Of a stretch of 64,000 bases of DNA, positions 13,515-43,334 are shown in pieces; positions within the stretch are counted from its first letter, which is position 1; each line of letters starts with the position of its first letter. The notes beneath the pieces were generated by a model, which saw only the letters and a program-made list of their open reading frames with translations, searched no databases and was not told the origin of the DNA. The translations under genes were made by a program, and so were the position numbers. The DNA is from Candidatus Poribacteria bacterium (lineage in GTDB: Bacteria; Poribacteria; WGA-4E; WGA-3G), in assembly GCA_028820635.1 (NCBI GenBank), contig JAPPIG010000064.1:195074-259073 (forward strand), written 5' to 3'.

Positions 13515-14162
13515 TTAGAATGTAGTATTCACCAATGTGCTATTGTAAGTAAGGATAGTATTCGGATGAATAATCCATCCTTTCTGCAGAAGAAAATCAA
13601 TTTTATAATGGGCGACGTTATGGACCGCCTGATCTAATTCCATTTCAGCTAATTTCCTTACCTGCGCAGCTTCTTTGTATTCTCGTGTCGGTTCTGCAAA
13701 ATCTGCAACATATATCAATTTTGCTATTAACCCCATTGATGCGTTGCCCGTTGTGTGGTTCCGGATCGCTTCAAGAATTTCTAAGTCAGTAATTTCAAAT
13801 AATTCAATAGCGCACTTTACTCCGACAATCGCGTGTAACAACGCAGGCATTATCTTCTCAATTGGGTCAAGTTCTATTTCGTGATGGGCTACCGCAGTGT
13901 ATAACTGATCGTCACTCATCCATTTTGCCACATCATGCAAAAGCGCCGCTAAATTGGTTTTCCAAACATCAGCATTATGACGTAGTGCTAACGTTACTGC
14001 TGTTTCCTGAACAGAAAACACATGATCAAGACGTTCTGGAGTAAGTTTTTCCGAAAGGTAACGTTGAATTTCTATTGACTTTGGGTGTTCTCTGAGTTCT
14101 ATTAATGTAGAAAACGATAATTCCGATTTACTGTTTACTGAAAAAATTTTTCTTTCCGTCAT
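13515..14162 (-). CDS. yqeK: HD-domain hydrolase YqeK (bis(5'-nucleosyl)-tetraphosphatase family)
   Basis: HD motif LLHDVAK and conserved position downstream of nadD. Confidence 0.7.
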   Translation of the reverse strand: MTERKIFSVNSKSELSFSTLIELREHPKSIEIQRYLSEKLTPERLDHVFSVQETAVTLALRHNADVWKTNLAALLHDVAKWMSDDQLYTAVAHHEIELDPIEKIMPALLHAIVGVKCAIELFEITDLEILEAIRNHTTGNASMGLIAKLIYVADFAEPTREYKEAAQVRKLAEMELDQAVHNVAHYKIDFLLQKGWIIHPNTILTYNSTLVNTTF

Positions 14163-15504: not shown

Positions 15505-16479
15505 ATGTCTGAAACGCATATACCAGTTTTACGCAATGAAGTACTTGAATTTCTCAAACCGAAACCGACAGGTATTTACGTAGATGCGACAATCGGATTA
15601 GGTGGACACAGTCTCTGGATTCTAAAAGAATCTCATCCCACTGGTCACCTAATCGGAATTGACTTGGATGCAAGCGCATTGGCTATTGCGAAAAAAAGGC
15701 TACACGCATTTAAAGAACGAATCAGTTTGATCCATGGTAGCTTCGCACAACTTCAGCAATTATTGGAAACACATGGAATCAACGAAGTTGATGGTGTTTT
15801 GTTGGATCTTGGCGTGTCCTCGTTACAACTGGATACACCAGACAGAGGATTCAGTTTCCAAAATTTAGGCCCTTTAGATATGCGGATGGATGAACGAACG
15901 CCCATATCAGCAGCACAGATCATCAACAATAGTACGCCGGACAAATTGATTAAAATATTCAAAGAATATGGCGAGGAACGTTATGCGAAACGGATCGTCC
16001 GAAACATCGTTGCGGCACGATCAGAAAGACCGATAACATCAACATTACAACTTGCAGAAATCGTTGTGAATGCATATTCCACCAAAGCCAAACGTTCAAA
16101 AACACATGCACAAAACAGACAAAAAGAAAGAGAAATTCACCCTGCCACCCGCGTTTTTCAGGCATTGCGGATTGCAGTCAATGCCGAACTTGATAATCTT
16201 ACACTTGGATTAAACGCTGCTGTAACTCTCTTGAAACCGGGTAAATGTCTTTGCGTTATCAGTTTTCATTCACTCGAAGATCGTATAGTAAAAAGACAAT
16301 TTCAGCAGTTGGCAAAAACTTGTATTTGCCCACCGAAAACACCTATTTGTATTTGTGAACATCAGCAAGTATTGCAGGTGGTAACAAACAAACCTGTCTT
16401 ACCGTCGACAAGCGAAATTGAAGCAAATCCACGGGCACGTAGTGCAAAATTACGGGTAGCAGTCAAAGTAAAAAATTGA
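15505..16479 (+). CDS. rsmH: 16S rRNA (cytosine1402-N4)-methyltransferase RsmH (MraW)
   Basis: HIPVLRNEVLEFLKP...YVDATIGLGGHS; first gene of the dcw cluster. Confidence 0.9.
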   Translation: MSETHIPVLRNEVLEFLKPKPTGIYVDATIGLGGHSLWILKESHPTGHLIGIDLDASALAIAKKRLHAFKERISLIHGSFAQLQQLLETHGINEVDGVLLDLGVSSLQLDTPDRGFSFQNLGPLDMRMDERTPISAAQIINNSTPDKLIKIFKEYGEERYAKRIVRNIVAARSERPITSTLQLAEIVVNAYSTKAKRSKTHAQNRQKEREIHPATRVFQALRIAVNAELDNLTLGLNAAVTLLKPGKCLCVISFHSLEDRIVKRQFQQLAKTCICPPKTPICICEHQQVLQVVTNKPVLPSTSEIEANPRARSAKLRVAVKVKN

Positions 16480-16528
16480 TACGTTAAAAAGATGTATCAA
16501 AATTTAAAATTTATCGTATACATTAATA

Positions 16529-16852
16529 ATGAGGAATCCAAATACTTACTCTACGCTGTTTGAAGAAAAAACGAAGCCCAAACCGAAAGTCGCAATGTTT
16601 CTTGTTTATGTTGTTTTAGGATTGTCTTTATGCGTATTTGGGGCAAGCGTTTGGTTTTCGTCTTATGCGAAAAAGGTTTACATCCGACGCAGACCTGTCC
16701 TTGAAACGGAGGCGGGTAAAATTCAAAACGAAATTCACAAACTTGAATTAGAAGTGAACACGTTAACTGATATTGAAAGGGTCCGTTCACTCATTAAAGA
16801 ATTAAGATTGGTTGAACCTACAAAAAAAACGATTGAACTTCAAGATAGGTAG
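16529..16852 (+). CDS. ftsL: cell division protein FtsL-like (single TM plus coiled coil)
   Basis: 107 aa, one TM helix, C-terminal coiled coil. Sits between rsmH and ftsI. Confidence 0.6.
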   Translation: MRNPNTYSTLFEEKTKPKPKVAMFLVYVVLGLSLCVFGASVWFSSYAKKVYIRRRPVLETEAGKIQNEIHKLELEVNTLTDIERVRSLIKELRLVEPTKKTIELQDR

Positions 16853-16967
16853 TTTGAATATACCAAAAGTTAGAAACGTATTTCCTTATCAGCAAGATTA
16901 AAGCAACGGATAACATAACACAGAATTATAAATTTTCCATAGTATTGCAGAAAGACACAACAAGATT

Positions 16968-18893
16968 ATGAAAAAAAATGGTTCTCTTTCAATTCGTCGA
17001 CTCGTTGTTACGCTAATCGTCTTACAATTAGGCTTTTTGGTATTGATAGGCAAACTTTTTATGCTTCAATATCCGGATGAAGATACGTCTCGGAAAGATT
17101 GGCGTTATCGGGGAAAGAACGAGGTTAAACGGGGCAAAATTCTGGACCGACACGGGAGTGTGTTTGGTATTAGCCAAGATCAACTTGCGGTTTCTGCAGA
17201 CCCCAAGACCTTTAACAGAAAATCTAACGCGCACATTGTCGCAACCGAATTAGCCCCTTTATTAGATACTTCCAAATCAGAGTTATTAGCGCAGCTGAAA
17301 CGGAAGCGGAACGGAGAGTACGTTGAATTCGTTTGGCTTAAAAAAGGAATTGATTATGACAAGTTAGATGCAATCCGCAACATCGCCAAAAAACACAGAG
17401 GACTCAAAATTGAAATTGAACCGAATCGAGTTTATCCGAAAAAGACGCTTGCATCACAGGTCATTGGTTACCTGAATGATTTAAATGCAGGGGAAGGAAT
17501 TGAATATCAATATCACACGTACCTTCAAAATTTACATTCACCCCAACCGCAGAGAAGAGACGAGGGGGCATCTGTTTTGCTCCAAGCACAATCAATTCCC
17601 GAAACACTTGGAAAAAATGGGTGTAACGTTGTCCTAACACTTGATCAGGTAATTCAAGATATCACCGAAAAAGAACTGGCACAAGGATGTAAAGATTGGA
17701 ACGCCCCGAAGGGGACTGCCATTGTCCTCGCTGTAGAAACTTCAGAGATATTAGCGATGGCAAGTTATCCTACTTATGACATTAATGACCAGACAAACGC
17801 GGATGAAGAAGCAAAACGCAACCTCGGAATTTGGTATGTGTTTGAACCGGGTTCTATTTTCAAAATTATCGCTTCCTCGGCAGTGTTGAACGAAGGCATC
17901 ATGACACCTGAATCGACGGTCTTCTGTCATAACGGGCGTTACCGCATTGGTAAGCGACGCGTTGTAAAGGACGTTTCTGCAAAAGGGTATTTATCGCTTG
18001 AACAAGTAATACAGAAATCAAGCAATATCGGAATGATAAAAATTGTCCAAAAGTTAACACCTGAACGTTTGGAAGCGTATGTAGATAAATTCGGCTTTGG
18101 AAAGAAGACTGGTGTAGATCTGCCGTATGAACAGGAAGGCAACTTGTATGCATTGCGGCGGTGGAATGTGAACTCCCTTGCTGCTATTCCTTTTGGGCAG
18201 GGAATTTCTGTTACACCTCTCCAGATGGTGAATGCTTTAGCTGTCATTGCTAATGGTGGTATTCTACACCGACCCTATATTACTAAGGAAATCCGAGACG
18301 CACGCGGAAACCTTATCAAGAAAAATCATCCGACTGAAATTCGACGTGTCTTGCGACCAGAAATTGCCCAACAGATGACAGATATTCTTGTCGGCGTGGT
18401 TGAAAAGGGAAGTGGCAGGAGAGCGAAAATAGACGGTGTAAGTATCGCTGGTAAAACCGGAACAGCGCAGAAAGCTGAAAGGGGTAAAGGCTATGCTGCT
18501 GGTAAAGAGGTAATGTCCTTTATGGGATTTCTTCCCGCTGACGCACCTAAAATTGCCATTATTGTCACATTGGATGAACCCACCGGTGAAAGATTTAGTG
18601 GTCGTATCGCAGCGCCTGTTTTCAAACGGATTGCCGAGCAAACCCTTAAATATATTGAACAAACACATTTTTTCGACTCAGCACCAAGGCGAAGAAGTAC
18701 ACCTGACCGTAAATTTGTTGATGGAAACAGGACAACTACGCGGATTGCCAACACACATTCGTCAAATCAAACGCCTCACAAAACGACTACTTCTCTCACC
18801 AAAAAGGGAAACATAGATCAATCCAGTAATTCAGAAATAAAAAACACACCAATCCCTGATGACACTTTAGTGAGGAAGGGAGAGGGGTTATGA
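16968..18893 (+). CDS. ftsI: peptidoglycan D,D-transpeptidase FtsI (PBP3-like) with low-complexity C-terminal tail
   Basis: N-terminal TM, SxxK (SIFK), SSN (KSSNIG), KTG (AGKTGTA). C-terminal ~90 aa is a Ser/Thr/Arg/Lys-rich tail. Confidence 0.85.
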   Translation: MKKNGSLSIRRLVVTLIVLQLGFLVLIGKLFMLQYPDEDTSRKDWRYRGKNEVKRGKILDRHGSVFGISQDQLAVSADPKTFNRKSNAHIVATELAPLLDTSKSELLAQLKRKRNGEYVEFVWLKKGIDYDKLDAIRNIAKKHRGLKIEIEPNRVYPKKTLASQVIGYLNDLNAGEGIEYQYHTYLQNLHSPQPQRRDEGASVLLQAQSIPETLGKNGCNVVLTLDQVIQDITEKELAQGCKDWNAPKGTAIVLAVETSEILAMASYPTYDINDQTNADEEAKRNLGIWYVFEPGSIFKIIASSAVLNEGIMTPESTVFCHNGRYRIGKRRVVKDVSAKGYLSLEQVIQKSSNIGMIKIVQKLTPERLEAYVDKFGFGKKTGVDLPYEQEGNLYALRRWNVNSLAAIPFGQGISVTPLQMVNALAVIANGGILHRPYITKEIRDARGNLIKKNHPTEIRRVLRPEIAQQMTDILVGVVEKGSGRRAKIDGVSIAGKTGTAQKAERGKGYAAGKEVMSFMGFLPADAPKIAIIVTLDEPTGERFSGRIAAPVFKRIAEQTLKYIEQTHFFDSAPRRRSTPDRKFVDGNRTTTRIANTHSSNQTPHKTTTSLTKKGNIDQSSNSEIKNTPIPDDTLVRKGEGL

Positions 18894-20434
18894 GACTCCA
18901 AAACCTTCTGGATGGAATTGAAATCACCGAAATAATTGGTGATCGAAACCCCAAAATTACGGGTGTTGTCAGTGACCATCGAAAAGTGAAGCCAGGATAT
19001 GCGTTTGTCTGCTATCAAGGTCTGAACGTTGATGGACATTCGTTTATTACTGGTGCTATTAATAACGGTGCTATAGCAATTATCGCTGAAATACAGACAT
19101 TGGACCTACCTAACGGTGTAACTGGCGTTGTCACCTCTAATGGACGAAAAGCACAAGCCTTATGTGCTGCTAATTGGCACGGTAATCCAGCGAAACGATT
19201 AAAATTAACCGGAATCACCGGCACAAACGGTAAGACATCTACTGCCCATTTGACTTATGGAATTCTTAAGGCGCAAGGGTTGAAAACTGCTGTTTTAGGC
19301 ACAGTAGGACATACGTACGATACAAATGATTCAACTTCAAACGAAAAATCCTCAGCCAAAATTGAAATTCCAGCACTTCTAACTACACCCGACGCTTTTG
19401 AACTCCATGCAATGTTAAAGCAAATAGCCGATGCTGGCATAGAACATGTTGTCATGGAAACCTCTTCTCAAGGACTTGCACAACACCGATTAGCCGGTAT
19501 TACCTTCAAAACCGCTGTTTTTACCAACCTCACACAGGACCATCTGGATTATCACGGCACGATGGAAAATTACCTCGCTGCGAAAATGATGCTATTTGTG
19601 CAATTGAGTCCGGAGGGTGTCGCAATTTTGAACGCAGATTCTTTTGCCACATCTCACATCATTGAATGTATCTCGTCTCACGGAAACATACTTACTTACG
19701 GACTTGAAAACGAGGCAGATTTACAGGCACAGGATGTAGAAGTATCATTAAAGCAATTAGCCTTTACAGCGGTTCCGAATGGGAACGGTAGCGTTAACAA
19801 TTCAGATGTATCACTGCAGAAAATCAAGGCAAAAATCCGCTTGCTGGGTTCATATAATATCTACAACGCTCTCGCGGCAATTGGTGTTGGAATCCGTTAT
19901 AATTGCAGTGCTGCAGCGATTCGTGAAGGACTTGCTGAGACTGTTGTACCTGGACGTTTTGAACGTATTACCTCACTGGGAGAACGAGACAAAGATTTCG
20001 CGGTTATTGTTGATTATGCACACACACCTGATGGCTTGGAAAACGTTTTAAATGCAGCACGCGGAATTACAGAAGGGAAGTTAATTTCTGTGTTTGGTTG
20101 CGGTGGTGACCGTGATAGAGGAAAACGCCCCAAAATGGGAGCAATTTCCACGCAGATTGCAGATATGAGCGTAATTACTTCCGACAATCCCCGTACGGAA
20201 AATCCCGAAGAAATCATCTCAGAAATTGTGTCAAATTTACCACATGATGCAGCATATCTGTGTATTCCAGAGAGACGCGAAGCAATTCGCCATGCTATCA
20301 TGGATGCACATCCAGGTGATGTCGTTGTGATTGCCGGTAAAGGGCATGAAAATTATCAAGAGATTCACGGAAAAAGATTTCCGTTTGATGACCGCGAAGT
20401 GGCATCGGAAATATTACAACATCTACCTATGTAG
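18890..20434 (+). CDS. murE: UDP-MurNAc-L-Ala-D-Glu:meso-DAP ligase
   Basis: Mur ligase GTNGKTST P-loop and a DNPR motif (SDNPRTENP), indicating meso-DAP specificity. Start overlaps the ftsI stop by 4 nt. Confidence 0.9.
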   Translation: MRLQNLLDGIEITEIIGDRNPKITGVVSDHRKVKPGYAFVCYQGLNVDGHSFITGAINNGAIAIIAEIQTLDLPNGVTGVVTSNGRKAQALCAANWHGNPAKRLKLTGITGTNGKTSTAHLTYGILKAQGLKTAVLGTVGHTYDTNDSTSNEKSSAKIEIPALLTTPDAFELHAMLKQIADAGIEHVVMETSSQGLAQHRLAGITFKTAVFTNLTQDHLDYHGTMENYLAAKMMLFVQLSPEGVAILNADSFATSHIIECISSHGNILTYGLENEADLQAQDVEVSLKQLAFTAVPNGNGSVNNSDVSLQKIKAKIRLLGSYNIYNALAAIGVGIRYNCSAAAIREGLAETVVPGRFERITSLGERDKDFAVIVDYAHTPDGLENVLNAARGITEGKLISVFGCGGDRDRGKRPKMGAISTQIADMSVITSDNPRTENPEEIISEIVSNLPHDAAYLCIPERREAIRHAIMDAHPGDVVVIAGKGHENYQEIHGKRFPFDDREVASEILQHLPM

Positions 20435-20476
20435 CCGCAGCAGCCAGTTATTCGGTAGACGAATCCACGAATTGAA

Positions 20477-21223
20477 ATGTTCACAGAAATTGATAATCTA
20501 AAAATAGCCTATCAGGTTGAAGGTGCCGGTACCCCCGTTGTTCTTCTACACGGATGGGGTGGTGAAGCGAATAGTTTTAGACCTGTCTTCGATTCGTTAT
20601 CCCGTTTCTACCAAGTGTATGCACTTGATCTTCCCGGCTTTGGATTAAGTGAAATTCCTCCGACAGCATGGGATGCTTCTGACTACGCCAAATTTCTTTC
20701 TGCTTTTTTTCAAAAACTCCACATCAACAAGGCACACCTGATTGGACACTCTTATGGAGGAAGAATATCTATAGTAATGGCAGCCGAAGAACCAGAGAAG
20801 ATAGACAAACTAATTTTAGTGGACAGTGCAGGTATTATACCGCCCCGAACAACGAAATACTATATACGGATCAGTCTCGCAAAAGTCGGACGCTTAATGC
20901 GATATTGTGGAACGCTCGGTAACAGACTGGCAGATAATATAACACAAAGGGTAGGTTCAGAAGATTACCGGGAAGCAGGTCCGATGAGAGCGACGATGGT
21001 GAAATCCGTGAATCAAAATTTGCGTCCACTATTAGCCAAGATTCAGGCCTCTACACTATTGATCTGGGGAGAAAACGATACAGATACACCTATATCGTTT
21101 GGGAGAATAATGGAGAAGGAGATACCTGACGCTGGTTTGGTAATTCTCAAGGATGCAGGACATTTCTCATACCTTGACCAATTGCCGCAGTTTTGTGAAA
21201 CTGTGACTGATTTTTTAGCATGA
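20477..21223 (+). CDS. alpha/beta-fold hydrolase inserted in the dcw cluster
   Basis: 248 aa. HGWGG oxyanion region, GHSYGG nucleophile elbow, C-terminal DAGHF. Confidence 0.8.
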   Translation: MFTEIDNLKIAYQVEGAGTPVVLLHGWGGEANSFRPVFDSLSRFYQVYALDLPGFGLSEIPPTAWDASDYAKFLSAFFQKLHINKAHLIGHSYGGRISIVMAAEEPEKIDKLILVDSAGIIPPRTTKYYIRISLAKVGRLMRYCGTLGNRLADNITQRVGSEDYREAGPMRATMVKSVNQNLRPLLAKIQASTLLIWGENDTDTPISFGRIMEKEIPDAGLVILKDAGHFSYLDQLPQFCETVTDFLA

Positions 21224-21319
21224 ACAGTTGGGACCGATGGCAAGTTTTGCCGAATAAAAGGTTCTATTGAGGATGAAATATTAGATTCTGTTGTTGCACT
21301 ATCTAAGGTACACACGATG

Positions 21320-21380
21320 GCGCAATGAATAATGTCGCTGCTAAAATATTTCGTAGCAGCACAATTCATTGCGTTTTTGT
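21320..21380 (+). terminator. rho-independent terminator between the hydrolase and murF
   Basis: Long imperfect hairpin GCGCAATGAAT..GCTGCTA(aaatatttcg)TAGCAGC..ATTCATTGCG, followed by TTTTTGTT. Confidence 0.6.
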
Positions 21381-21457
21381 TAATGTGGGTTGAGAGTTAA
21401 TCAACGTGGAACTCTGAACCACTACATAAGTAGACGATTTTTTGGATAATTAAAGAA

Positions 21458-23098
21458 ATGTTAGAAACGGTTAGCGGATTACTCTTTTATTTTCTCGTTG
21501 TTGCTTGTTTTGTAAGGGCAGTCATTCGGACAACCCGCGGATTACATATACTACAACTTGATGGTTATAAACCTGGGCGATTTCTAAAATGGATTTTGAC
21601 ACACCTCAAACACTGCTTTGAAATCGTAGAGATTGTTATTATCGTAGGCCTCTTAACTATTACGACTATTTTTCCTAACATTCAAACCAATTGGTTTTTC
21701 CCCGCGGTTTGTGTAATCTGGACAGCGTTCCAAGTATATAAAATTGTATGGCGTAAAAAGTCAACAGCGAAAAAACCACTTGTTTACACTGCACGCGCGA
21801 AAAGGCTTTTCGGATTGACACTCAGTCTGCTTACTGTCGTTGCGACTGTGCTTGTTGTTTTAACAGAAGGCAACCGATCGCGAATAGGTGTATTTCTATT
21901 TAGTGAACTCACAGTGCCGATTCTCGTCGTGAGTAGTTTTTTAATTTGGCCATTAGAACAATTTATCAACGGTGCTTATTTACGTGACGCAAGAAAACGC
22001 ATCAAAACCCTTCAACCAAAAATTATCGGAATTACAGGCAGTTACGGAAAAACGAGTACCAAGTATATTCTTCACCAAATTTTATCAAAAAAGTATAATA
22101 CGCTGATGACTCCAGATAGCTATAATACACCGATGGGTATTTGCAAAGTTATCAGAGGTGATTTATTACCTGAACACGAATATTTCATAGTTGAGATGGG
22201 AGCGTATAAACGAGGTGATATTCGCGAACTGTGTCGACTTGCGCCACCGGAAATAGGAATTCTCACGGCTGTCGGTCCTCAACATTTAGAACGGTTTAAA
22301 AGTATTGAAAATACTGCCCGCGCAAAGTATGAGTTAATTGAAGCATTACCCGCAAACGGACTTGCAGTAATTAATGCTGATAACGAAATTTGTGCAGCAT
22401 TGGCAGATAAGACCGGCAGTGTTCCTGTTATTAGGTATGGCGTAGAAGCAAACGGTGTTGAGAATACGTCTTTAAGGTTGAAAGCACGTAATATTATACA
22501 GAGTGATAAAGGACTTACTTTTACTGTAAGTGACGAGGTAACAGGGACAACCGATATAAAAACACGTCTTCTGGGAAAACATAACGTATCAAACATTCTT
22601 GCTGCCATTGGTGTTTCTCTGCAATGCGGGATGACATTGAATGAAATTCAAGAGGCGCTTGAAGCATTAGAACCGGTTCCACATCGTTTGCAGCTGATAG
22701 CTGGAGGTGCAGGTGTAACTGTGATTGACGATAGTTTCAATGCTAATCCTGAAGGGGCAAAAGCAGCACTTGAGGTGCTTACTGATTTTGTGAGTGATAA
22801 GGATGGAAAAAAGGTATTAGTTACGCCAGGAATGGTGGAACTTGGTAAACGTGAATACGATGAAAACAAACAATTCGGTTCAGCAGCAGCTAAGGTGTGT
22901 GACCTTGTTATCCTTGTTGGCCCAGCAAGAACTGCACCGATTTTAGATGGACTCAAAACAGCAAATTATCCCGAACAACAGATTTATGTTGCGAAGGATC
23001 TCGCTGAGGCACAGCAACAACTTGCCGAACGCCTAAAACCGGGTGATGTAGTTCTTTTTGAGAATGATTTGCCCGATAATTATAATGAAGCATTTTAG
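21458..23098 (+). CDS. murF: UDP-MurNAc-tripeptide:D-Ala-D-Ala ligase MurF with N-terminal polytopic membrane domain
   Basis: C-terminal 370 aa is a MurF-type Mur ligase (GITGSYGKTSTK; DDSFNANP). The N-terminal ~175 aa contain about 5 predicted TM helices instead of the usual MurF domain 1. Confidence 0.8.
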   Translation: MLETVSGLLFYFLVVACFVRAVIRTTRGLHILQLDGYKPGRFLKWILTHLKHCFEIVEIVIIVGLLTITTIFPNIQTNWFFPAVCVIWTAFQVYKIVWRKKSTAKKPLVYTARAKRLFGLTLSLLTVVATVLVVLTEGNRSRIGVFLFSELTVPILVVSSFLIWPLEQFINGAYLRDARKRIKTLQPKIIGITGSYGKTSTKYILHQILSKKYNTLMTPDSYNTPMGICKVIRGDLLPEHEYFIVEMGAYKRGDIRELCRLAPPEIGILTAVGPQHLERFKSIENTARAKYELIEALPANGLAVINADNEICAALADKTGSVPVIRYGVEANGVENTSLRLKARNIIQSDKGLTFTVSDEVTGTTDIKTRLLGKHNVSNILAAIGVSLQCGMTLNEIQEALEALEPVPHRLQLIAGGAGVTVIDDSFNANPEGAKAALEVLTDFVSDKDGKKVLVTPGMVELGKREYDENKQFGSAAAKVCDLVILVGPARTAPILDGLKTANYPEQQIYVAKDLAEAQQQLAERLKPGDVVLFENDLPDNYNEAF

Positions 23099-23250
23099 CA
23101 CATAGAAATAGAATGAAAAGGCAAGAAGTTCTTCATAAATTTTATGAGAAATGAAAAGAGAAATAGAGATACTGGATTTTCAACATTTTAATATAAATAA
23201 CATACTTACCGTCAAGCGAGTTTTTATAGATACTTTTAAAGGATTAAAAC

Positions 23251-24483
23251 ATGAACGTAGCTCTCATATTTGGTGGCCGATCACCTGAACACGAAGTATC
23301 GATTGTCACTGCACATCAGGTCAATGCTGCCTTAGCGGAAACACATGACGTTATCCCAATTTATATCACTAAAGAGGGGGCATGGTTAACAGGCGAAAAA
23401 CTCAAAGAGCTGAGTACATTCACCGAAGGAAACTTACCTCGCGCCGCTGATTTTGATACAGTTAGCATTGAATTTGAGACGCACGCAAAATTCAGTGTCT
23501 TACCAAAACGCAGCGGTTTATTTAATAAAAAACGAGAACTTCCTATTGATGTCGTCTTTCCCGCGATTCACGGTGTACACGGCGAAGATGGTTCTCTTCA
23601 AGGACTTCTTGAACTAATAGATATACCTTATGTCGGAGCAAATGTTATCGGTTCTGGTGTCGGCATGGATAAGATCATGATGAAAGCTGTTCTTAGTGAG
23701 AATGGACTTCCTATTGTTCCTTATATCCCGTTCACCAAACATGATTGGGATTCGGCGAGCGACGATATTCTGAAAGTAATTGAAGAAAAAATAACCTATC
23801 CTATGTTCATAAAACCGGCTGTAAGTGGTTCAAGCATCGGTGTCAGCCAGGCGAAGAATGAGAGCGAACTTCGGGATGCGATTGAACTTGCATGCCGATA
23901 TTGCCGACGGATCCTCGTTGAGCAAGGAATCGAAAACGGTTTTGAAATAAATTGTTCCGTAATGGGAACACACACTCCGACTCCTTCAGTCTGTGAACAA
24001 CCAATTGCCAGCACAGATTTCCTCAGCTTTGACGATAAATATATACATCAAAATTCGGAAACTGAATCCATTTCTGACGATAAATCTGAGGCAGATGTTA
24101 CTTCTGGAATGGCAGGCGCACAACGTGAAATTCCTGCACCTATTCCAGAAGAATTGACGTTACATATTCAAAATCTTGCTACTTTAACTTTTCAAGTCCT
24201 TGACTGTGCGGGTATTGCCCGAATAGATTTCTTGGTGAACGAAGAAAATCAAGTATACGTAAATGAGATAAATACAATTCCTGGTTCTTTTAGTTTCTAC
24301 TTGTGGGAACCAGTCGGAATTTCATTCCCAGAATTAGTGTCCCAATTGGTTAACCTTGCATTAGAAACACACCACGAGAAAAATCGCTTAATCTATTCTT
24401 ATTCGACAAACTTGTTAAGTCAGACAGGGGCAAGTTTTGCAAAGTTAAAATCTGACGAATCACAATCACAGGAAACTGTGTAA
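23251..24483 (+). CDS. ddl: D-alanine--D-alanine ligase
   Basis: ATP-grasp Ddl motifs (HGVHGEDGSLQGLLE, FIKPAVSGSSIGVS, ARIDFLV...EINTIPG). Carries an acidic ~35-aa insertion and a C-terminal extension. Confidence 0.85.
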   Translation: MNVALIFGGRSPEHEVSIVTAHQVNAALAETHDVIPIYITKEGAWLTGEKLKELSTFTEGNLPRAADFDTVSIEFETHAKFSVLPKRSGLFNKKRELPIDVVFPAIHGVHGEDGSLQGLLELIDIPYVGANVIGSGVGMDKIMMKAVLSENGLPIVPYIPFTKHDWDSASDDILKVIEEKITYPMFIKPAVSGSSIGVSQAKNESELRDAIELACRYCRRILVEQGIENGFEINCSVMGTHTPTPSVCEQPIASTDFLSFDDKYIHQNSETESISDDKSEADVTSGMAGAQREIPAPIPEELTLHIQNLATLTFQVLDCAGIARIDFLVNEENQVYVNEINTIPGSFSFYLWEPVGISFPELVSQLVNLALETHHEKNRLIYSYSTNLLSQTGASFAKLKSDESQSQETV

Positions 24484-24614
24484 CCCTGCATAATGCTTTT
24501 AAGAGGGTGGTCATGGTAGTGTCATTCAACTATTCCCATATCATTTATTAAAGTTTAATTATGCCTCAGCAATAACATTTACCACGCTATGAAGCAAGTA
24601 AAGAAGCATAAGAA

Positions 24615-25733
24615 ATGTTTTATCAACTATTTTTTAAATACCTTGTTAACGTATTTCAACCCTTTAGCATTTTTAGTTCAATTCCTTTTCGTGCTGTTTA
24701 TGCAACAGCAACCGCTCTCATTATTTCCCTTGTTTTAGGACCTTTTATGATAAAAAGGTTAAAGCAGTTGCGAATTGGTGAACATATTCAAGAAGAGGTA
24801 GAAAAAGCACAGCAGCATAATGAAGACCAAAGCAAGGCTGGAACGCCGACAATGGGTGGCATCCTTATCATTGTCGCGGTACTTATATCTGTCATTTTTT
24901 GGGCGCGGCTTGATCAACCTTATATCTACCTGATGATCTTTACAACGATTTGGTTTGGGGGGCTCGGTTTTTTAGATGATATGTTCAAAATTAGCAAAAA
25001 ACAGTCGCTCGGTCTTAGGGCTTGGCAGAAATTCTTACTGCAAACCGTGGGGGCTGTGGCAATTGCATGCTATCTTTACCAATGGGGCCCTGCTGAGGCA
25101 AATGATACGGCAACTCGCACAGCGCTTAATCTTCCATTTTTCAAACACTTACAACCCAATCTTGGCATCTTCTTTATCCCGTTTGCGACCTTAGTGATCG
25201 TTGGCTCCTCAAACGCTGTGAATCTGACAGACGGTATGGATGGTTTAGCAATTGGATGTACACTATTTGTCGCAGGCACAATTGGGGTGTTAGGGTATAT
25301 TACAAGCCATAATGTTTTTGCAGAACATCTGAACCTTTTTCATTTGCCTGTTGGTGGAGAAGTTACGACGATCTTTTGTGCGTCGTTGGCAGGGGCAGGA
25401 TTAGGATTTCTATGGTACAACGGACATCCAGCACAACTTTTCATGGGAGACACCGGTTCTTTACCGCTCGGTGCAACGCTCGGAACTTGTGCGCTACTAA
25501 TAAAACAGGAATTTCTTCTTATCATCGTTGGCGGAATTTTTGTGGCAGAAGTATTATCCGTCATTATACAGGTTTTCTCATACAGAACATTTGGAAAACG
25601 AGTTATCAAGATGTCCCCGCTCCATTATCATTTCCTGCTTTCGGGTTGGAGAGAATCAAAAGTGGTCATACGTTTTTGGATTGTTGCGCTTATTTTAATG
25701 TTGATTGCATTGAGTACGCTGAAATTAGGGTAG
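24615..25733 (+). CDS. mraY: phospho-N-acetylmuramoyl-pentapeptide transferase
   Basis: 10-TM protein with NAVNLTDGMDGLA and the DD..K..S motifs of MraY. Confidence 0.9.
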   Translation: MFYQLFFKYLVNVFQPFSIFSSIPFRAVYATATALIISLVLGPFMIKRLKQLRIGEHIQEEVEKAQQHNEDQSKAGTPTMGGILIIVAVLISVIFWARLDQPYIYLMIFTTIWFGGLGFLDDMFKISKKQSLGLRAWQKFLLQTVGAVAIACYLYQWGPAEANDTATRTALNLPFFKHLQPNLGIFFIPFATLVIVGSSNAVNLTDGMDGLAIGCTLFVAGTIGVLGYITSHNVFAEHLNLFHLPVGGEVTTIFCASLAGAGLGFLWYNGHPAQLFMGDTGSLPLGATLGTCALLIKQEFLLIIVGGIFVAEVLSVIIQVFSYRTFGKRVIKMSPLHYHFLLSGWRESKVVIRFWIVALILMLIALSTLKLG

Positions 25734-25788
25734 GCGTGTTTACTCCGTAATATGTCTTTTCTCATAAATTTTACGATTGAGGTAATGC

Positions 25789-27273
25789 TTGAAACATCCA
25801 AACTTGGGCTGCTTGTCGGCAAAACAGATAACTGTTTTTGGTGCGAATCGAAGTGGCATAGCAATTGCACGGTTACTTCATGACCGTGGTGCGAATATCT
25901 CCCTTACAGATTCACGTGATGTAGAAGCATTGTCTACCGAAATTACGCAATTGAAAGACATACCGATTGAATACTATCTCGGAGGCCATAGCGAATCTTG
26001 TATTGCTAATGCTGAATTGATAGTTGTTTCACCCGGGGTGCCTTTAGAAATTCCGATTTTGGTTGAGGCAAAAAAAAGAAATATTCCAATTTTAGGCGAA
26101 TTGGAAGTCTCTGCAAGCCTTTGTCAAGCACCTATCGTCGCAATTACGGGCACAAAAGGAAAATCTACAACAACGCTTTTGACTGCGGCAATTTTAGAAG
26201 CAGATGACATATTTTCCAATGTGATAGTGGCAGGAAATATAGGCGTTCCGTTAGCAAGTAAAGTAGCGACATTAACCTATAAGGATGTCGTTGCCTTAGA
26301 GGCAAGTAGTTTCCAATTGGAGAGTACCGTTACTTTCCGACCAGCAGTGAGTGTGGTCCTGAATTTTTCACGTGACCATCTTGATCGCCATGGAACGATG
26401 GAATCGTATTTGAATGCGAAAAAAAAGATATGTGCAAATCAGACGAGTTCGGAATGGATAGTGGTAAATGCTGCTGATACAACTGCTAAGAATTTCAAGC
26501 ATGCCACCGCAGCGAAAAAAGCATTTTTCACAGATCACCTCTCAAATACAGATGAAGAATGGAAAAAAATATGTCGCAAAATGGGTGGTGGAATTGGAGC
26601 ATGTCTGCGAAGCAATGCAAACAACATTGGAATCTATACCTATAAAGATAATCAAGAACACTGGGTTTGTAATGTCGCTGATTTGCCGTTAGAAGGAGCA
26701 CATAATGTCAGAAACGTCCTTGCATCAATAGTTGTAGGGACAATCTTCGGTATAACACCTGCGGATATGGGTAAGGCTATTCGAGAATTTGATCGGATAC
26801 ACCCTGCTCTTGAACACGCTTTTGAAAAGGTTAGCGTTATCAAAGGTGTAGATTATATAAACGATTCTAAAGCAACAAACGTCATAGCAACATGCGCTGC
26901 CCTTGAGTCAATTGAAAAAACAACCGATCTTGGTGGAGATGTAAAACGCGTTTTCTTAATCATAGGAGGATATGATAAGGGAAACGATTACAAACCGCTA
27001 ATTGAACTTGTCCGTACTAAAGTTAAAAATTTAGTTCTACTTGGGGAATACACACAAAACATTGAAAAAACATTCAGCGGTTGTGTCAATATGCATCATA
27101 CTGCAACAATGGCAGAGGCAGTTGAATATGCGTACACACATGCTACACCAGGAGACATCGTCCTTTTATCACCCGCAAACGCGAGTTTTGATATGTACAC
27201 TGATTATAAGGAACGCGGGCAGGTGTTTAAAAACGCAGTGAATTCACTTGAGACTTATCAGTCGCTTGATTAA
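25789..27273 (+). CDS. murD: UDP-MurNAc-L-Ala:D-Glu ligase
   Basis: N-terminal Rossmann motif ITVFGANRSGIA; Mur ligase P-loop GTKGKSTT. Confidence 0.85.
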   Translation: MKHPNLGCLSAKQITVFGANRSGIAIARLLHDRGANISLTDSRDVEALSTEITQLKDIPIEYYLGGHSESCIANAELIVVSPGVPLEIPILVEAKKRNIPILGELEVSASLCQAPIVAITGTKGKSTTTLLTAAILEADDIFSNVIVAGNIGVPLASKVATLTYKDVVALEASSFQLESTVTFRPAVSVVLNFSRDHLDRHGTMESYLNAKKKICANQTSSEWIVVNAADTTAKNFKHATAAKKAFFTDHLSNTDEEWKKICRKMGGGIGACLRSNANNIGIYTYKDNQEHWVCNVADLPLEGAHNVRNVLASIVVGTIFGITPADMGKAIREFDRIHPALEHAFEKVSVIKGVDYINDSKATNVIATCAALESIEKTTDLGGDVKRVFLIIGGYDKGNDYKPLIELVRTKVKNLVLLGEYTQNIEKTFSGCVNMHHTATMAEAVEYAYTHATPGDIVLLSPANASFDMYTDYKERGQVFKNAVNSLETYQSLD

Positions 27274-27318
27274 GAAATTTACTTGATTCAAAGTTTAATT
27301 GAGATACACTGACAACTT

Positions 27319-28518
27319 ATGCAAAATTATAACACCCTCAATTATGCGAATCCAACTACTCTTCCTTCTGATAGAGAGCAACCCCAAATTGCGGGTCTTG
27401 GCAGAATAGACATCGCTCTGCTTGTTGTGACGCTCTTCTTGGTTGGAATAGGTATCGTGATGGTTTTTAGTGCTGGACATGTATTATCTGAAAAACAGTA
27501 CGGGAACAGTTACCATTACCTGAAAATCCAAGCAATTGCCTGTATGATAGGTTTGATTGGGATGGGTATTGCCTCGTATATCCCATATCGGTTTTATGAA
27601 AAGTATAGTAACATATTGTTGTTCTTGGCTTTTGGTTTGCTGATCTTGGTTTTTACGCCTATAGGTACCAGTGTGCAAGGGGCGGAAGGTGGCAGATTTA
27701 ACCGATGGATCGCCTTAGCAGGTGTCCAATTCCAACCTGTGGAATTTGCAAAGATCGCCATACTCATTCATACAGCACATTTCTTGGCGCGAAAGCCAGA
27801 ACGTATTAAAAGTTTCTTTCATGGAGTACTACCAAACATCTTAATCATAGGATTAATGTTCGGATTAGTGGCAATGCAGCCTGATTTCGGTTCAGCTGTA
27901 CTATTAGCAGCTACAGCAGGATGCCTCCTGTTTGTTGGCGGTATTCGCTTGTCCCATACATTTATATTAGTAGCAGTTGGAGGTGTATTATTAGCTGGAT
28001 TTATTATCAATGATCCGTACCGATTAACTCGCTTAACAGATTACTGGGCATCCTTACAATCTCCGGAAGCCACAAGTTTTCAGTTGGGACGTTCATTTGA
28101 GGCACTTAAATGGGGCGGTTTATTTGGAGTCGGCATTGTTGACAGCGTTGCTAAAATAAATTATTTGCCTTACCCGCACACAGATTTTATTTTTGCAGTA
28201 CTGGGTGAAGAGTTCGGATTTAGGGGCACAGCAGCGGTGACACTCATTTTTATGATATTTATTTGGCGTGGAATTTCAATCGCAAGACGTACAGAAAACC
28301 GATTTGGGGCACTATTTGCAACCGGACTTACGATAATCATCGGGCTTCAAGCATTCATCAATATCGGCGTTGTAACGGGACTACTTCCTACAAAGGGCAT
28401 CACTCTTCCTTTTCTCAGTTATGGTGGTTCATCTCTGGTAATCAGTCTGGTAAGTGTCGGCATGCTTTTGAATATTTCTCGAACTGCTACACGGTCATCT
28501 CCAAAAACAGCAAAATAA
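27319..28518 (+). CDS. ftsW: SEDS-family peptidoglycan polymerase FtsW
   Basis: 10-TM FtsW/RodA family, with the conserved QPSE-like region (QPDFGSAVLL) and the C-terminal PFLSYGGSS motif. Confidence 0.85.
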   Translation: MQNYNTLNYANPTTLPSDREQPQIAGLGRIDIALLVVTLFLVGIGIVMVFSAGHVLSEKQYGNSYHYLKIQAIACMIGLIGMGIASYIPYRFYEKYSNILLFLAFGLLILVFTPIGTSVQGAEGGRFNRWIALAGVQFQPVEFAKIAILIHTAHFLARKPERIKSFFHGVLPNILIIGLMFGLVAMQPDFGSAVLLAATAGCLLFVGGIRLSHTFILVAVGGVLLAGFIINDPYRLTRLTDYWASLQSPEATSFQLGRSFEALKWGGLFGVGIVDSVAKINYLPYPHTDFIFAVLGEEFGFRGTAAVTLIFMIFIWRGISIARRTENRFGALFATGLTIIIGLQAFINIGVVTGLLPTKGITLPFLSYGGSSLVISLVSVGMLLNISRTATRSSPKTAK

Positions 28519-28524
28519 GTTAAT

Positions 28525-29730
28525 GTGAAAAAGCAAAAAACGCGACATAAAAGGCAAGACGTTGCCAGCAAAAATACTAATCATAAAAAAAACGATAAAC
28601 GATTTGTCCTTGCCGGAGGTGGAACAGGCGGACATATCTATCCTGCCATTGGGATTGCCCAGGCCCTTCAACGCCTAAATCCAGAGGTAGACATAGTTTT
28701 TATCGGTGGGCGAGACCGCTTAGAATCAACGCTTGTTCCGCAACACGGTTTTCGGTTTCTACCCATTTCTGTTGAAGGATTTCCACGCAGCTTGACGTGG
28801 AAATGGTTTCCAGTTATCATAAAAGTCTGTCGTGGACTTGTACAATCGTTGAAATATCTTAGACAATTCCAGCCAAGTGTCGTTATTGGAACAGGTGGAT
28901 ATGTCTCTGGACCTGTTCTCTTTGCTGCTTCGCTTCTGGGTATCCCGATAGCGATACAGGAACAAAATGTGTCTCCCGGTTTAACAAATAGCATGCTGGC
29001 GCGTCGTGCCAAAGCAGCGTACCTCGCGTTACCACCAGATACTCAACGGTTTCCTAATCACATTGTGGAGATAACTGGTAATCCGATTCGAATCGGAATA
29101 ACGGATTATCCGCGTAATAACGAAACTTATCGAAAATTTAAATTATGTGAAGATCGCAAAACGGTATTCGTAATGGGAGGGAGTCAAGGTGCCCGTGCTA
29201 TTAATAAAGTGATGATAGAAGCGTGTCCATTAATTGCTAAATTTGCTGCATCTCTAATGTTGGAAACAGGTAGCACCAGCATGGGTAACCTCCAAATTGT
29301 ACATCAAACAGGAAAAACGGATGCGGAGCAAGTACAAACAGCCTATGCAGAACATGGAATAGCACATCATGTTCAACCATTCTTCGATCCTGTGGAAGAA
29401 ATATATAGTATCGCTGATGTAATGATTTGCAGAGCAGGTGGAATGACGGTATCTGAAGTTACCGCATGTGGTATTCCAGCAATTTTTATACCGCTACCTG
29501 CTGCCGTAGGTAATAACCAAGTTCGCAATGCTGAAACAGTGGCTAATGCAGGTGCTGCTGTCGTTCTTGAACAGGAAGAAGTAACACCTGAGGCACTTGT
29601 GAAAGAATTAATTCAAATAATTACAGATGAAAGTTCCTATCAACAAATGAAAACGGCAAGCCAGGATCTTGGTCGTCCGTATGCAAGTGATACGATTGCC
29701 GAATCAATTTTTAGGCTTGCATCTCCTTAA
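28525..29730 (+). CDS. murG: UDP-GlcNAc:lipid I GlcNAc transferase
   Basis: GGGTGGHIYPA G-loop and GT28 C-terminal domain. The ORF has a ~27-aa Lys/Arg-rich N-terminal extension, so the true start may be internal. Confidence 0.85.
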   Translation: MKKQKTRHKRQDVASKNTNHKKNDKRFVLAGGGTGGHIYPAIGIAQALQRLNPEVDIVFIGGRDRLESTLVPQHGFRFLPISVEGFPRSLTWKWFPVIIKVCRGLVQSLKYLRQFQPSVVIGTGGYVSGPVLFAASLLGIPIAIQEQNVSPGLTNSMLARRAKAAYLALPPDTQRFPNHIVEITGNPIRIGITDYPRNNETYRKFKLCEDRKTVFVMGGSQGARAINKVMIEACPLIAKFAASLMLETGSTSMGNLQIVHQTGKTDAEQVQTAYAEHGIAHHVQPFFDPVEEIYSIADVMICRAGGMTVSEVTACGIPAIFIPLPAAVGNNQVRNAETVANAGAAVVLEQEEVTPEALVKELIQIITDESSYQQMKTASQDLGRPYASDTIAESIFRLASP

Positions 29731-29791
29731 AAACATAAAAGAAATAAACAGTATTGCTAATTTAATTTTAGTATTGTACTGGAGATTAGCA

Positions 29792-31162
29792 TTGTTTGGA
29801 AAGACACAACACATTCATATAATAGGTATCGGTGGAGCTGGGTTGAGTGGAATCGCTGAAGTTCTTCTTGATCTCGATTTTGATGTCACGGGTTCGGACA
29901 TTGTAAAATCAACAACTACGGAACATCTTAAGGCATGTGGTGCCAAAATCTGGTATGGTCATGCATCCTCCCAAGTTAACGGAGCAGACGTAGTGGTCAT
30001 GTCACCAGCTATTCCGGAGGACAACCCAGAATTACAAGCTGCAATGCTTGCCAAAATACCGATTATTCGTGGAGCTGAAATGTTGAATGAGATAACACGA
30101 ATGCGGTATAGCGTTGCTGTCAGTGGTACTCATGGAAAAACAACAACAACTGCAATGACAGCGGCTGTGTTAGCCACACTCGACCCAACGGTCGTTGTTG
30201 GTGGCAAATTAGTCAATGGAAGTAACGCACGGAGTGGACACGGCGATGTGATGGTAATTGAAGCAGATGAGGCGTACGGGTCAATTGAAATGTTCTACCC
30301 TACTATCGCTGTTGTCACATCTGTTGATGCGGATCACCTTGACTACTACAATAACGTAGAAGAAATCGGTAAAACCTTTCTAACATTTATCAACAAAGTT
30401 CCGTTTTATGGTTCAGCCGTGTTGTGTCTCGACCAAGAAAACATCCAAAAGCTTATTCCACAAGTAGAGAAAAAATTTGTGACATACGGTCTCGAAACGA
30501 GAGCAGACCTGATTGCCGAAGAAATTAAGATTGACGGACCGACTTCACATTATCAAGTTCGTATGAACGATGAAGTTTACGGTAATGTACATCTTAAAAT
30601 GCCCGGACGGCATAATATTGCAAACTCCTTAGCTGCAATCGCAGTAGGACTTGAATTAGAGATTCCTTTTGAAAAAATCCAGGGCGCGCTTGAATCTTTT
30701 CAAGGTGTGCATCGTCGATTTGAAGTGTTAGGAACTGTAGATAATATAGTCGTTGTTGACGACTATGCACATAACCCCGCAAAACTTATGGCAGCACTCC
30801 GAGGTGCAAGAGAAGGTTATAATAGACGAATTGTGGCTGTTTTTCAACCACATCGATACGGACGCGTACGAGATCTCGCAGATGAGTTTAGCAGATCATT
30901 TTATCAAGCAGATGTCCTGATTGTTACGTCAATCTACGGGGCAGGCGAAGAACCGATAGAAAATGTAACAGGGGAAAACTTAGCTCGTGCAATAGAAGCA
31001 CACGGACATACACATGTAATTTATGAATCTGATATGGATGAAGCAGTTGAACGTCTGATGCAAATTACGCGACCTAATGATTTAGTCATCACGCTCGGGG
31101 CAGGCGATGTAGTGAATGTAGGACACAAATTTTTAAGCAAACGTGCATCGGAAATACGCTAA
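29792..31162 (+). CDS. murC: UDP-MurNAc:L-Ala ligase
   Basis: HIHIIGIGGAGLSGIAEVL and GTHGKTTTT. The ORF-track start at 29669 overlaps murG. An in-frame TTG at 29792 with GGAG 7 nt upstream gives a canonical MurC N-terminus. Confidence 0.8.
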   Translation: MFGKTQHIHIIGIGGAGLSGIAEVLLDLDFDVTGSDIVKSTTTEHLKACGAKIWYGHASSQVNGADVVVMSPAIPEDNPELQAAMLAKIPIIRGAEMLNEITRMRYSVAVSGTHGKTTTTAMTAAVLATLDPTVVVGGKLVNGSNARSGHGDVMVIEADEAYGSIEMFYPTIAVVTSVDADHLDYYNNVEEIGKTFLTFINKVPFYGSAVLCLDQENIQKLIPQVEKKFVTYGLETRADLIAEEIKIDGPTSHYQVRMNDEVYGNVHLKMPGRHNIANSLAAIAVGLELEIPFEKIQGALESFQGVHRRFEVLGTVDNIVVVDDYAHNPAKLMAALRGAREGYNRRIVAVFQPHRYGRVRDLADEFSRSFYQADVLIVTSIYGAGEEPIENVTGENLARAIEAHGHTHVIYESDMDEAVERLMQITRPNDLVITLGAGDVVNVGHKFLSKRASEIR

Positions 31163-33362: not shown

Positions 33363-33527
33363 GCTGTAAAAATCTATTACGATAATTTGCTTTTTATATT
33401 TCGGAATAACGGTAAGAAACAAAGTGTTTCGCAATATACAAGCCTGGATAGCAAGATTTAAATCGTGAGAACCCAGTCAAGACTCAAAGAAAATTTAATA
33501 TATACACCCTTTTTATCATTCATTATA

Positions 33528-33556
33528 TTGATTTAATTCTAAATTATTTGTATAAT
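33528..33556 (+). promoter_or_regulatory. candidate sigma70 promoter in the ftsA-ftsZ spacer
   Basis: TTGATT at 33528-33, 17-nt spacer, TATAAT at 33551-56. About 400 nt upstream of ftsZ, which implies a long leader. Confidence 0.35.
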
Positions 33557-33953
33557 AAAATAATATAATTACTAATTGATGAATAAAGCACGGAAGGAAG
33601 TATATACCTTTGTTTATTGAAGGTAAGTTAAAATATTTTAACAACGAGATAGGAAAGTTGCAATCTCACTTTTAGCGTGTGGTTGCTTGAGTGACGCGCT
33701 GTGTGTAGAATTCATTATCGGGACGTATTGACACCGAAGGGAGTTCGGTGGAGTCAAGATTCGTGTAAAAAGATATTGGTAAACTACACGAGTGTAAATT
33801 ACACACTGAAATAGTGTTTTCAGCATGAAGTGCTTATACAGAAGGAGGAATTAGGTTGCCGTTGGTTAGACAACGTTCCACAAAATGAAACGTAAGTTAT
33901 AATGCTGCGGAGGCACCGAAGGATGTGTTGTCCACAGGTGACTGAAATAAAAA

Positions 33954-43252: not shown

Positions 43253-43334
43253 GATTTTGAAATCGGGCTTTCAAAGCCCTCCAACTATTTATGATAGGTT
43301 GTACATAAATGTTCATACGGAAGTAAAATTTAAC

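Follow-up and report, generated by a model that had tools for sequence, protein, structure and literature searches.

A MurF-type ligase with a predicted five-helix membrane module in place of domain 1, encoded with a hydrolase and a Ddl in Candidatus Poribacteria and other bacteria

We analyzed a 64,000-nucleotide stretch of a Candidatus Poribacteria genome (assembly GCA_028820635.1, contig JAPPIG010000064.1, positions 195,074 to 259,073 of the forward strand; here called the window) that contains a division and cell wall (dcw) gene cluster, and we describe one gene of that cluster, which encodes a MurF-type ligase with transmembrane (TM) helices, hereafter TM-MurF. In teaching and in drug discovery, the ligases MurC to MurF are treated as soluble enzymes of the cytoplasm in which an N-terminal domain binds the uridine diphosphate (UDP) end of the peptidoglycan precursor. 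In TM-MurF this domain (domain 1) is replaced by a module of five predicted TM helices. The same architecture recurs in distant bacteria, nearly always in a cassette with genes for an α/β-fold hydrolase and a D-Ala-D-Ala (D-alanyl-D-alanine) ligase (Ddl). We think that TM-MurF is probably a membrane-integral enzyme that adds D-Ala-D-Ala during peptidoglycan synthesis. Coordinates of all features discussed are collected in Table 1.

The ligase body of TM-MurF (residues ∼188 to 534) is a complete MurF type, with ATP-binding and C-terminal domains. Its best NCBIfam model is TIGR01143 (murF), which scores 259.7 bits over profile positions 63 to 403; other Mur models score far lower (MurD, 120.5 bits; MurE, 105.6 bits; MurC, 102.2 bits). 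The top sequence matches in the PDB are all MurF enzymes (Escherichia coli, Pseudomonas aeruginosa, Acinetobacter baumannii, Thermotoga maritima, and Streptococcus pneumoniae), with alignments that start at about query residue 175 to 188, and the entries matched by sequence or fold (1gg4, 4cvk, 4qdi/4qf5, and 3zl8) are likewise all MurF. When the whole AlphaFold 2 (AF2) model was compared with the PDB by Foldseek, MurF structures came first (4qf5, E = 1.7e-24), over only ∼370 to 383 columns, that is, the ligase part. BLASTP against E. coli K-12 MurF paired residues 188 to 488 with MurF residues 101 to 391 (36% identity, E = 2e-42). The alignment with E. coli MurF covers the P-loop, E246, H276, K290, the NADN and HN..N motifs, R410, and DDSFNANP, all of which are invariant among TM-MurF homologues; in the middle domain, the invariant set is E246, H276, K290, N306, and D308. 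The ligase part is of MurF type, and no other Mur ligase comes as near to it as MurF does. The initial annotation had recognized the MurF type from the P-loop and DDSFNANP, and the Pfam, NCBIfam, and PDB matches bear it out.

Domain 1, by comparison, left no trace. Neither the PF01225 N-domain nor any other Pfam family matches residues 1 to 185, a search with the N-terminal 191 residues by themselves gave no NCBIfam match, and no part of E. coli MurF residues 1 to 100 aligns with TM-MurF by BLASTP. Domain 1 probes taken from E. coli and Subdoligranulum MurF and run across the 64-kb window matched only the N-domain of MurE. Because the alignments start at about residue 188 and the probes find MurE alone, the canonical domain 1 is truly missing, with the five-helix module standing in its place. 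Its absence had been suspected from the sequence; the E. coli alignment, limited to MurF residues 101 to 391, agrees, and a cryptic domain 1 was rejected, with no sign of one in Pfam, the alignment, or the probe matches.

The TM helices were called by Kyte-Doolittle hydropathy on TM-MurF itself and on the averaged hydropathy profile of 30 distant relatives. Lysines and arginines are distributed unevenly over the segments of the module (N terminus, 0; loop 1, 7; loop 2, 0; loop 3, 8; loop 4, 2; post-TM5, 5), a pattern that obeys the positive-inside rule and predicts an N terminus outside the membrane and a cytoplasmic ligase. The AF2 model (41 homologues; mean predicted local distance difference test score [pLDDT], 84.5; predicted template modeling score, 0.75) places helices at residues 2 to 34, 39 to 48, 56 to 71, 80 to 98, 112 to 135, and 139 to 185, with a pLDDT of ∼80 to 90 for the helices of the module. 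Both the roughly five hydrophobic helices of the initial annotation and its gap of ∼25 residues between the last helix and the P-loop (residues 166 to 190) hold up, the former by hydropathy and by AF2 helices at matching positions. In the model, one long helix (139 to 185) carries TM5 directly into the P-loop strand (188 to 193). A separate model of residues 1 to 190 (pLDDT 77) found no fold relative in the PDB by Foldseek (best E, 0.54; template modeling score, ≤0.3), and neither Pfam-A (2025) nor NCBIfam 20.0 contains a curated model for the module.

Conservation in the module is concentrated in short elements. Motif 1, at the cytoplasmic end of helix 1, has the family form LHxLQLxxY, with Q33 and Y37 invariant across phyla. 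Motif 2, in the basic TM3-TM4 loop, has the family form KKPLVxTxRxxR; T111, R113, and R116 are invariant, and the loop is flexible in the AF2 model (pLDDT ∼61). At the point where TM5 leaves the membrane, P165 is invariant and E167 is ≥90% conserved. Near-invariant residues of the module are His30, Trp45, Lys105, Lys106, and Glu167; together with Gln33, Tyr37, Thr111, Arg113, Arg116, and Pro165, they lie on the predicted cytoplasmic face, beside the ligase. Because the invariant residues are polar or basic and are predicted to face the cytoplasm, the membrane module appears to be more than a passive anchor or tether.

An architecture of this kind could be an artifact, in which a sequencing or assembly error fused a small membrane-protein gene to a normal or truncated murF or the start was miscalled; we regard this as extremely improbable. 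Nothing interrupts the open reading frame (ORF), which has one ATG start; the nearest in-frame stop 5′ of it lies just before 21434. A protein-cluster search covering 5.8 billion clusters returned >120 full-length homologues (539 to 566 amino acids, 66 to 97% identity) from independent assemblies, of which the named ones are Candidatus Poribacteria. The continuous AF2 helix from TM5 into the ligase and the lack of any domain 1 remnant nearby are further points against fusion.

The architecture also recurs far outside this phylum. We scanned a degenerate DNA pattern for motif 2 over GTDB, with one genome per species, and it matched at least 120 loci. Among the 120 loci listed, 118 have a motif-bearing ORF, mostly of ∼490 to 575 amino acids, and in 113 a P-loop follows ∼85 to 110 residues downstream, so that the full architecture, with its motif-to-P-loop spacing, is conserved across many phyla. 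A locus or contig end or a frameshift truncates the five ORFs that lack a P-loop, and the same holds for about nine shorter ORFs within the set of 113. A frameshift or fusion artifact was rejected on the strength of the independent assemblies and of this repetition across phyla; the gene is real.

Protein searches with the module agree in part. The N-terminal 180 residues alone, searched against 1.84 billion representatives, gave 231 matches at E ≤0.001, many of them 510 to 565 amino acids long with 25 to 48% identity; judging from this combination of length and low identity, distant lineages share the TM-MurF architecture. A profile search with the N-terminal module gave 19 matches, all Poribacteria fragments, which is likely an effect of the word prefilter on hydrophobic sequence. 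A search seeded with an Oscillospiraceae member found Ruminococcus flavefaciens and many other Ruminococcus species.

Among the matches listed, the hosts include Clostridia (Lachnospiraceae, Oscillospiraceae, Ruminococcus, Christensenella, and Acutalibacteraceae), Tissierellia (including the cultured [Clostridium] ultunense), Bacilli, Bacteroidales (Muribaculaceae, Prevotella, and others), Balneolales, Chloroflexota, Synergistaceae, Syntrophobacterales, and Poribacteria. The ligase parts of the TM type from seven lineages are 37 to 65% identical to one another and 28 to 36% identical to canonical MurF (E. coli or Subdoligranulum). Because mutual identity exceeds identity to canonical MurF in this way, TM-MurF forms a coherent, old, and widespread subfamily, present in at least seven major lineages, and not a recent local fusion; what the initial annotation had noted in one genome thus extends well beyond it. 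The window protein carries the traits of the subfamily: the five-TM module, LHxLQLxxY, KKPLVxTxRxxR, PxE, a P-loop within 85 to 100 residues after motif 2, and the cassette. On sequence grounds, we would file TM-MurF as a distinct subfamily; MurF is its closest relative, yet domain 1 is lacking and the score cutoff is not reached.

In nearly all of the 120 loci listed, the genes run in the order α/β-hydrolase, TM-MurF, and Ddl (∼400 amino acids) on the same strand, and the stop codon of the hydrolase gene often overlaps the start codon of the TM-MurF gene. We confirmed the order with Pfam annotation in two loci (L123 and L124). The initial annotation had not noted this grouping of the three genes. 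Three Balneolales loci (L028, L064, and L068) have TM-MurF without hydrolase or Ddl neighbors; among the matches listed, this is the only lineage in which we saw a broken cassette. In one Poribacteria locus (L036, 4393-6064), the gap between the hydrolase gene and TM-murF is ∼1.6 kb, versus 234 bp in the window. No recurrent neighbors outside the three cassette genes were found among the loci listed. The cassette is conserved in ∼100 genomes; its flanks are housekeeping genes (for example, nadD, yqeK, rsfS, RNase R, smpB, and recG), and we saw no regulators, VanH/VanX-like genes, or mobile-element genes near the cassette. The architecture was absent from PLSDB plasmids. Rfam, promoter, and terminator scans around the TM-MurF gene gave nothing above chance.

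The catalytic triad of the hydrolase (Ser92 in GHSxGG, Asp201, and His229) is ≥95% conserved in 99 orthologues; from this conservation, the hydrolase appears to be catalytically intact and an active enzyme. It also has a conserved SxDY motif (S161, D163, and Y164). In NCBIfam and the PDB, it is related only to generic esterases, lipases, and C-C hydrolases.

The Ddl clears the NCBIfam subfamily cutoffs (NF002528, 345 versus 262 bits; TIGR01205, 290 versus 245.65 bits). K263-Y264 in its omega loop is ≥95% conserved in 74 orthologues, and an omega-loop Lys-Tyr is typical of D-Ala-D-Ala ligases such as DdlB and not of D-Ala-D-Lac (D-alanyl-D-lactate) ligases such as the Van ligases. By these measures the cassette Ddl appears to be a bona fide D-Ala-D-Ala ligase. 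The cassette Ddl is unusually long (410 amino acids in the window; family median, ∼400 amino acids from stop to stop). In the window, an insertion of ∼12 residues (∼267 to 278), which most orthologues lack, directly follows the Lys-Tyr pair. The protein also has a C-terminal extension of ∼30 to 40 residues, and the Pfam C-domain match falls in two stretches.

In the window, the dcw genes are ordered mraW, ftsI, murE, [hydrolase, TM-murF, ddl], mraY, murD, ftsW, murG, murC, ftsQ, ftsA, and ftsZ, so that the cassette occupies the murF slot between murE and mraY. The cluster (15505-35285) lacks murB, a canonical murF, and a separate ddl; no second murF or ddl was found within the 64-kb window. 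Seven other Poribacteria genomes have the identical placement. Among the matches listed, the cassette lies inside the dcw cluster only in Poribacteria; elsewhere (for example, in Clostridia and Bacteroidales) it is away from mraY and the dcw cluster. The cassette has nadD, a yqeK-like HD-domain gene, and rsfS nearby in two settings (window, 13515-14162, minus strand; L124, 1426-3599). Several Clostridia carry them directly upstream of the cassette and on its strand; Poribacteria carry them a short way upstream of the dcw cluster, on the opposite strand. This proximity could reflect common ancestry of the region, or it could be a coincidence.

How might such an enzyme work? In the scheme that we favor, cytoplasmic loops of the module would replace domain 1 and hold the pyrophosphate/nucleotide end of MurNAc (N-acetylmuramic acid)-tripeptide at the membrane surface. 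The co-encoded Ddl would supply D-Ala-D-Ala locally, and the product would be formed at the membrane and passed directly to MraY. Given its translational coupling and strict co-occurrence with TM-MurF, the hydrolase may form a complex with it, as a stoichiometric partner that edits or trims. In Poribacteria, the cassette would then provide the housekeeping MurF and Ddl. The initial annotation had argued that a membrane-tethered MurF would put the last cytoplasmic step next to MraY, encoded two genes downstream. The position of mraY is as described, and the murF slot close to ddl and mraY, along with the cytoplasmic ligase predicted from topology, fits the idea for Poribacteria; gene order cannot supply a general rationale, however, because the cassette of other lineages is not near mraY or the dcw cluster.

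Several observations weigh against the favored assignment. The TIGR01143 score lies below the curated cutoff of 288.6 bits, and TM-MurF falls far under the NCBIfam cutoffs of all MurF equivalog models; RefSeq names the R. flavefaciens orthologue, like the other Ruminococcus proteins found, only "Mur ligase family protein"; and the MurF step of the textbooks offers no role for the hydrolase that always accompanies TM-MurF. A Lachnospiraceae metagenome-assembled genome (MGBC139979) has two hydrolase/TM-MurF cassettes on two contigs (L039 and L085). A canonical murF does lie between murE and mraY in Subdoligranulum, a genus of the order to which cassette-bearing Ruminococcus also belongs; the canonical and TM types were found within one order, not within one genome, in PLSDB, the named-species matches, and the 20-kb neighborhoods. 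The cassette in Clostridia could be a paralogous, non-housekeeping system. Generalized, this becomes an accessory role: carriers would keep a canonical MurF and Ddl, and the cassette would make or attach a dipeptide with some other use, for example in a different precursor end that confers intrinsic tolerance of glycopeptides or D-cycloserine, in a wall specific to stress or sporulation, or in the modification of some other envelope molecule that bears a carboxylate. The low score, the canonical dcw murF in a related genus, and the two cassettes in one genome all favor this, as do the separate, deep-branching position of the subfamily, the location outside dcw in Clostridia and Bacteroidales, and the dedicated Ddl and hydrolase, a layout that recalls van-type gene sets. 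We nevertheless rate an accessory role as distinctly unlikely. The Poribacteria cassette sits in the murF slot with no other murF or ddl in the cluster or window, its Ddl passes the Ddl cutoffs and has the Tyr that marks the omega loop of D-Ala-D-Ala ligases and not of D-Lac ligases, and the surroundings described above (housekeeping flanks, absence from PLSDB plasmids, no regulatory, VanH/VanX-like, or mobile-element genes) also speak against it.

A different possibility leaves the reaction in place and changes its acceptor, which would be undecaprenyl-pyrophosphoryl-MurNAc-tripeptide (lipid I/II with a tripeptide or trimmed stem) and not UDP-MurNAc-tripeptide. The module would bind polyprenyl-pyrophosphate, the dipeptide would come from Ddl, and the task of the hydrolase would be to trim or edit lipid-linked stems that are faulty; the order in Poribacteria would be MurE, MraY, and then TM-MurF, and elsewhere the cassette would be a possible repair system. 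A membrane-embedded domain does stand where the UDP-binding domain would be. Structures of MurE and MurF show the substrate pyrophosphate at the boundary where the N-domain meets the middle domain, and in MurT, a lipid II enzyme without the N-domain, this boundary has been argued to face the membrane (PMC6113224). The corresponding boundary in TM-MurF coincides with the membrane exit of TM5, and the invariant or near-invariant basic residues K105, K106, R113, and R116 are predicted at the membrane surface. UshA, an α/β-hydrolase that acts on undecaprenyl-phosphate-linked sugars (PMC11898649), provides a precedent for the hydrolase. The location of the cassette outside dcw in an order with a known canonical murF also fits an additional role better than a replacement. 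This reasoning is geometric and contextual, however, and the conserved cytoplasmic Gln, Tyr, His, and Trp could equally make a uridine pocket. The module has no detectable likeness to known polyprenyl-phosphate-binding folds in the PDB fold search. MraY, moreover, uses the tripeptide nucleotide poorly. On balance we find a lipid-linked acceptor unlikely.

TM-MurF is best understood beside proteins with which it shares some features. Like canonical MurF (EC 6.3.2.10; 1GG4, 4CVK, and 4QF5), it has the middle and C-terminal domains, the P-loop, DDS(Y/F)NANP, the residues at the Mg/ATP and carbamyl-Lys positions, and, in the window, a gene that is ddl linked and between murE and mraY. It differs in that the soluble UDP-holding domain 1 of ∼80 to 100 residues is replaced by the conserved five-TM module, in its partnership with an α/β-hydrolase, and in forming a separate sequence subfamily.

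MurT of the MurT/GatD pair is likewise a Mur ligase homologue without the UDP-binding N-domain, has a co-encoded hydrolase-type partner, and acts on a membrane-bound precursor (PMC6113224). By analogy, MurT is a mechanistic precedent for Mur ligases that work at the membrane. MurT is soluble, however, has a DUF1727-type C-terminal domain and a Cys4 zinc ribbon, and amidates D-Glu (D-glutamate) with a glutaminase partner, whereas TM-MurF has a standard PF02875 C-domain and MurF motifs, is predicted to be membrane integral, and partners with a hydrolase and Ddl. The MurT model NF045635 is absent from the listed NCBIfam matches of TM-MurF; with this, the standard C-domain, and the hydrolase/Ddl partners, we rejected membership in the MurT family. 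CapB/PgsB also has the Mur ligase fold, and an N-terminal hydrophobic segment holds it at the membrane. Unlike TM-MurF, CapB has a single anchor helix and polymerizes glutamate with CapA and CapC; it belongs to an FPGS (folylpolyglutamate synthase)-like branch (PMC11915815). Pfam and NCBIfam searches with TM-MurF gave no CapB match, and we rejected a CapB identity on these grounds.

Natural Mur chimeras are known (MurE-MurF, MurC-Ddl, MurD-FtsW, and MraY-MurG; PMC10214165). As in TM-MurF, a Mur enzyme is joined to another part, and the partners include membrane proteins; these chimeras, however, combine two complete known enzymes, whereas TM-MurF has a domain swapped for a module of no known family. 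The 2023 chimera survey considered only proteins >600 amino acids, and the TM-MurF architecture is not in it (PMC10214165); because of that length limit, TM-MurF, at ∼540 amino acids, would have been missed. A recent classification of Mur-domain families does not mention the architecture either (PMC11915815). We found no description of it in full-text literature searches, in keeping with the initial annotation, to which no characterized MurF of this architecture was known.

TM-MurF represents a large, phylogenetically broad MurF lineage with domain 1 swapped for a conserved integral-membrane module, which calls into question the textbook view of these enzymes as soluble. Its carriers include Poribacteria of the sponge-symbiont type, rumen Ruminococcus, and gut Lachnospiraceae, Muribaculaceae, and Prevotella. 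Should TM-MurF prove to be the housekeeping MurF, these organisms would make the peptidoglycan precursor with a final "cytoplasmic" step that is physically membrane bound. If the acceptor were lipid linked, the order of the pathway would change in Poribacteria, or gut Clostridia and Bacteroidales would have a new repair route for lipid I/II. Automatic annotation as plain MurF or "Mur ligase family protein" leads pathway reconstructions and inhibitor design to overlook the difference.

Table 1. Features of TM-MurF and its gene neighborhood (positions in the window; residues refer to the TM-MurF protein)
Feature	Position	Strand	Details
TM-MurF ORF	21458-23098	+	546 amino acids; ATG start, TAG end, frame uninterrupted
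N-terminal five-helix membrane module	21458-21952	+	Residues 1-165; predicted from hydropathy, positive-inside rule, AF2
TM1	21467-21526	+	Residues ∼4-23
Motif 1, LHILQLDGY	21542-21568	+	Residues 29-37; cytoplasmic end of helix 1
TM2	21614-21673	+	Residues ∼53-72
TM3	21689-21748	+	Residues ∼78-97
Motif 2, KKPLVYTARAKR	21770-21805	+	Residues 105-116; basic cytoplasmic TM3-TM4 loop
TM4	21806-21862	+	Residues ∼117-135
TM5	21884-21952	+	Residues ∼143-165
PxE (P165, E167) and linker helix	21950-22018	+	Residues 165-187; TM5 membrane exit, runs into P-loop strand
Mur ligase middle (ATP-binding) domain	22028-22615	+	PF08245 Mur_ligase_M; residues 192-386; 151 bits (cutoff 24)
P-loop, GITGSYGKTSTK	22028-22063	+	Residues 191-202
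Mur ligase C-terminal domain	22682-23059	+	PF02875 Mur_ligase_C; residues 409-534; 67.7 bits
DDSFNANP, MurF-type motif	22727-22750	+	Residues 424-431; aligns with E. coli MurF DDSYNAN
murE, canonical with N-domain, 5′ flank of cassette	18890-20434	+	Pfam, NCBIfam
α/β-fold hydrolase, cassette gene 1	20477-21223	+	248 amino acids; Pfam Abhydrolase_1/6, Hydrolase_4
Long D-Ala-D-Ala ligase (Ddl), cassette gene 3	23251-24483	+	410 amino acids; Pfam Dala_Dala_lig_N/C
mraY, 3′ flank of cassette	24615-25733	+	Two genes downstream of TM-MurF

Subdoligranulum variabile "plasmid 5" (OY725839.1; L122) is a 100-kb record, filed as a plasmid, with a penicillin-binding protein-murE-murF-mraY-ftsW cluster; it is probably a chromosomal fragment or chromid.

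Within the window, a B12-binding radical SAM gene (35340-37082) lies directly after ftsZ. Farther downstream, a gene for a 1,429-amino-acid protein (38249-42538, plus strand) with leucine-rich repeats and cohesin, dockerin, and FlgD-Ig domains is followed by genes for a TPR protein (43257-44648) and an FG-GAP/ASPIC protein (44645-46345); eukaryote-like repeat proteins are typical of Poribacteria. Two proteins of ∼260 amino acids with Laminin_G_3 (concanavalin-like) domains are encoded far apart (2223-3008, minus strand, and 37164-37940, plus strand).

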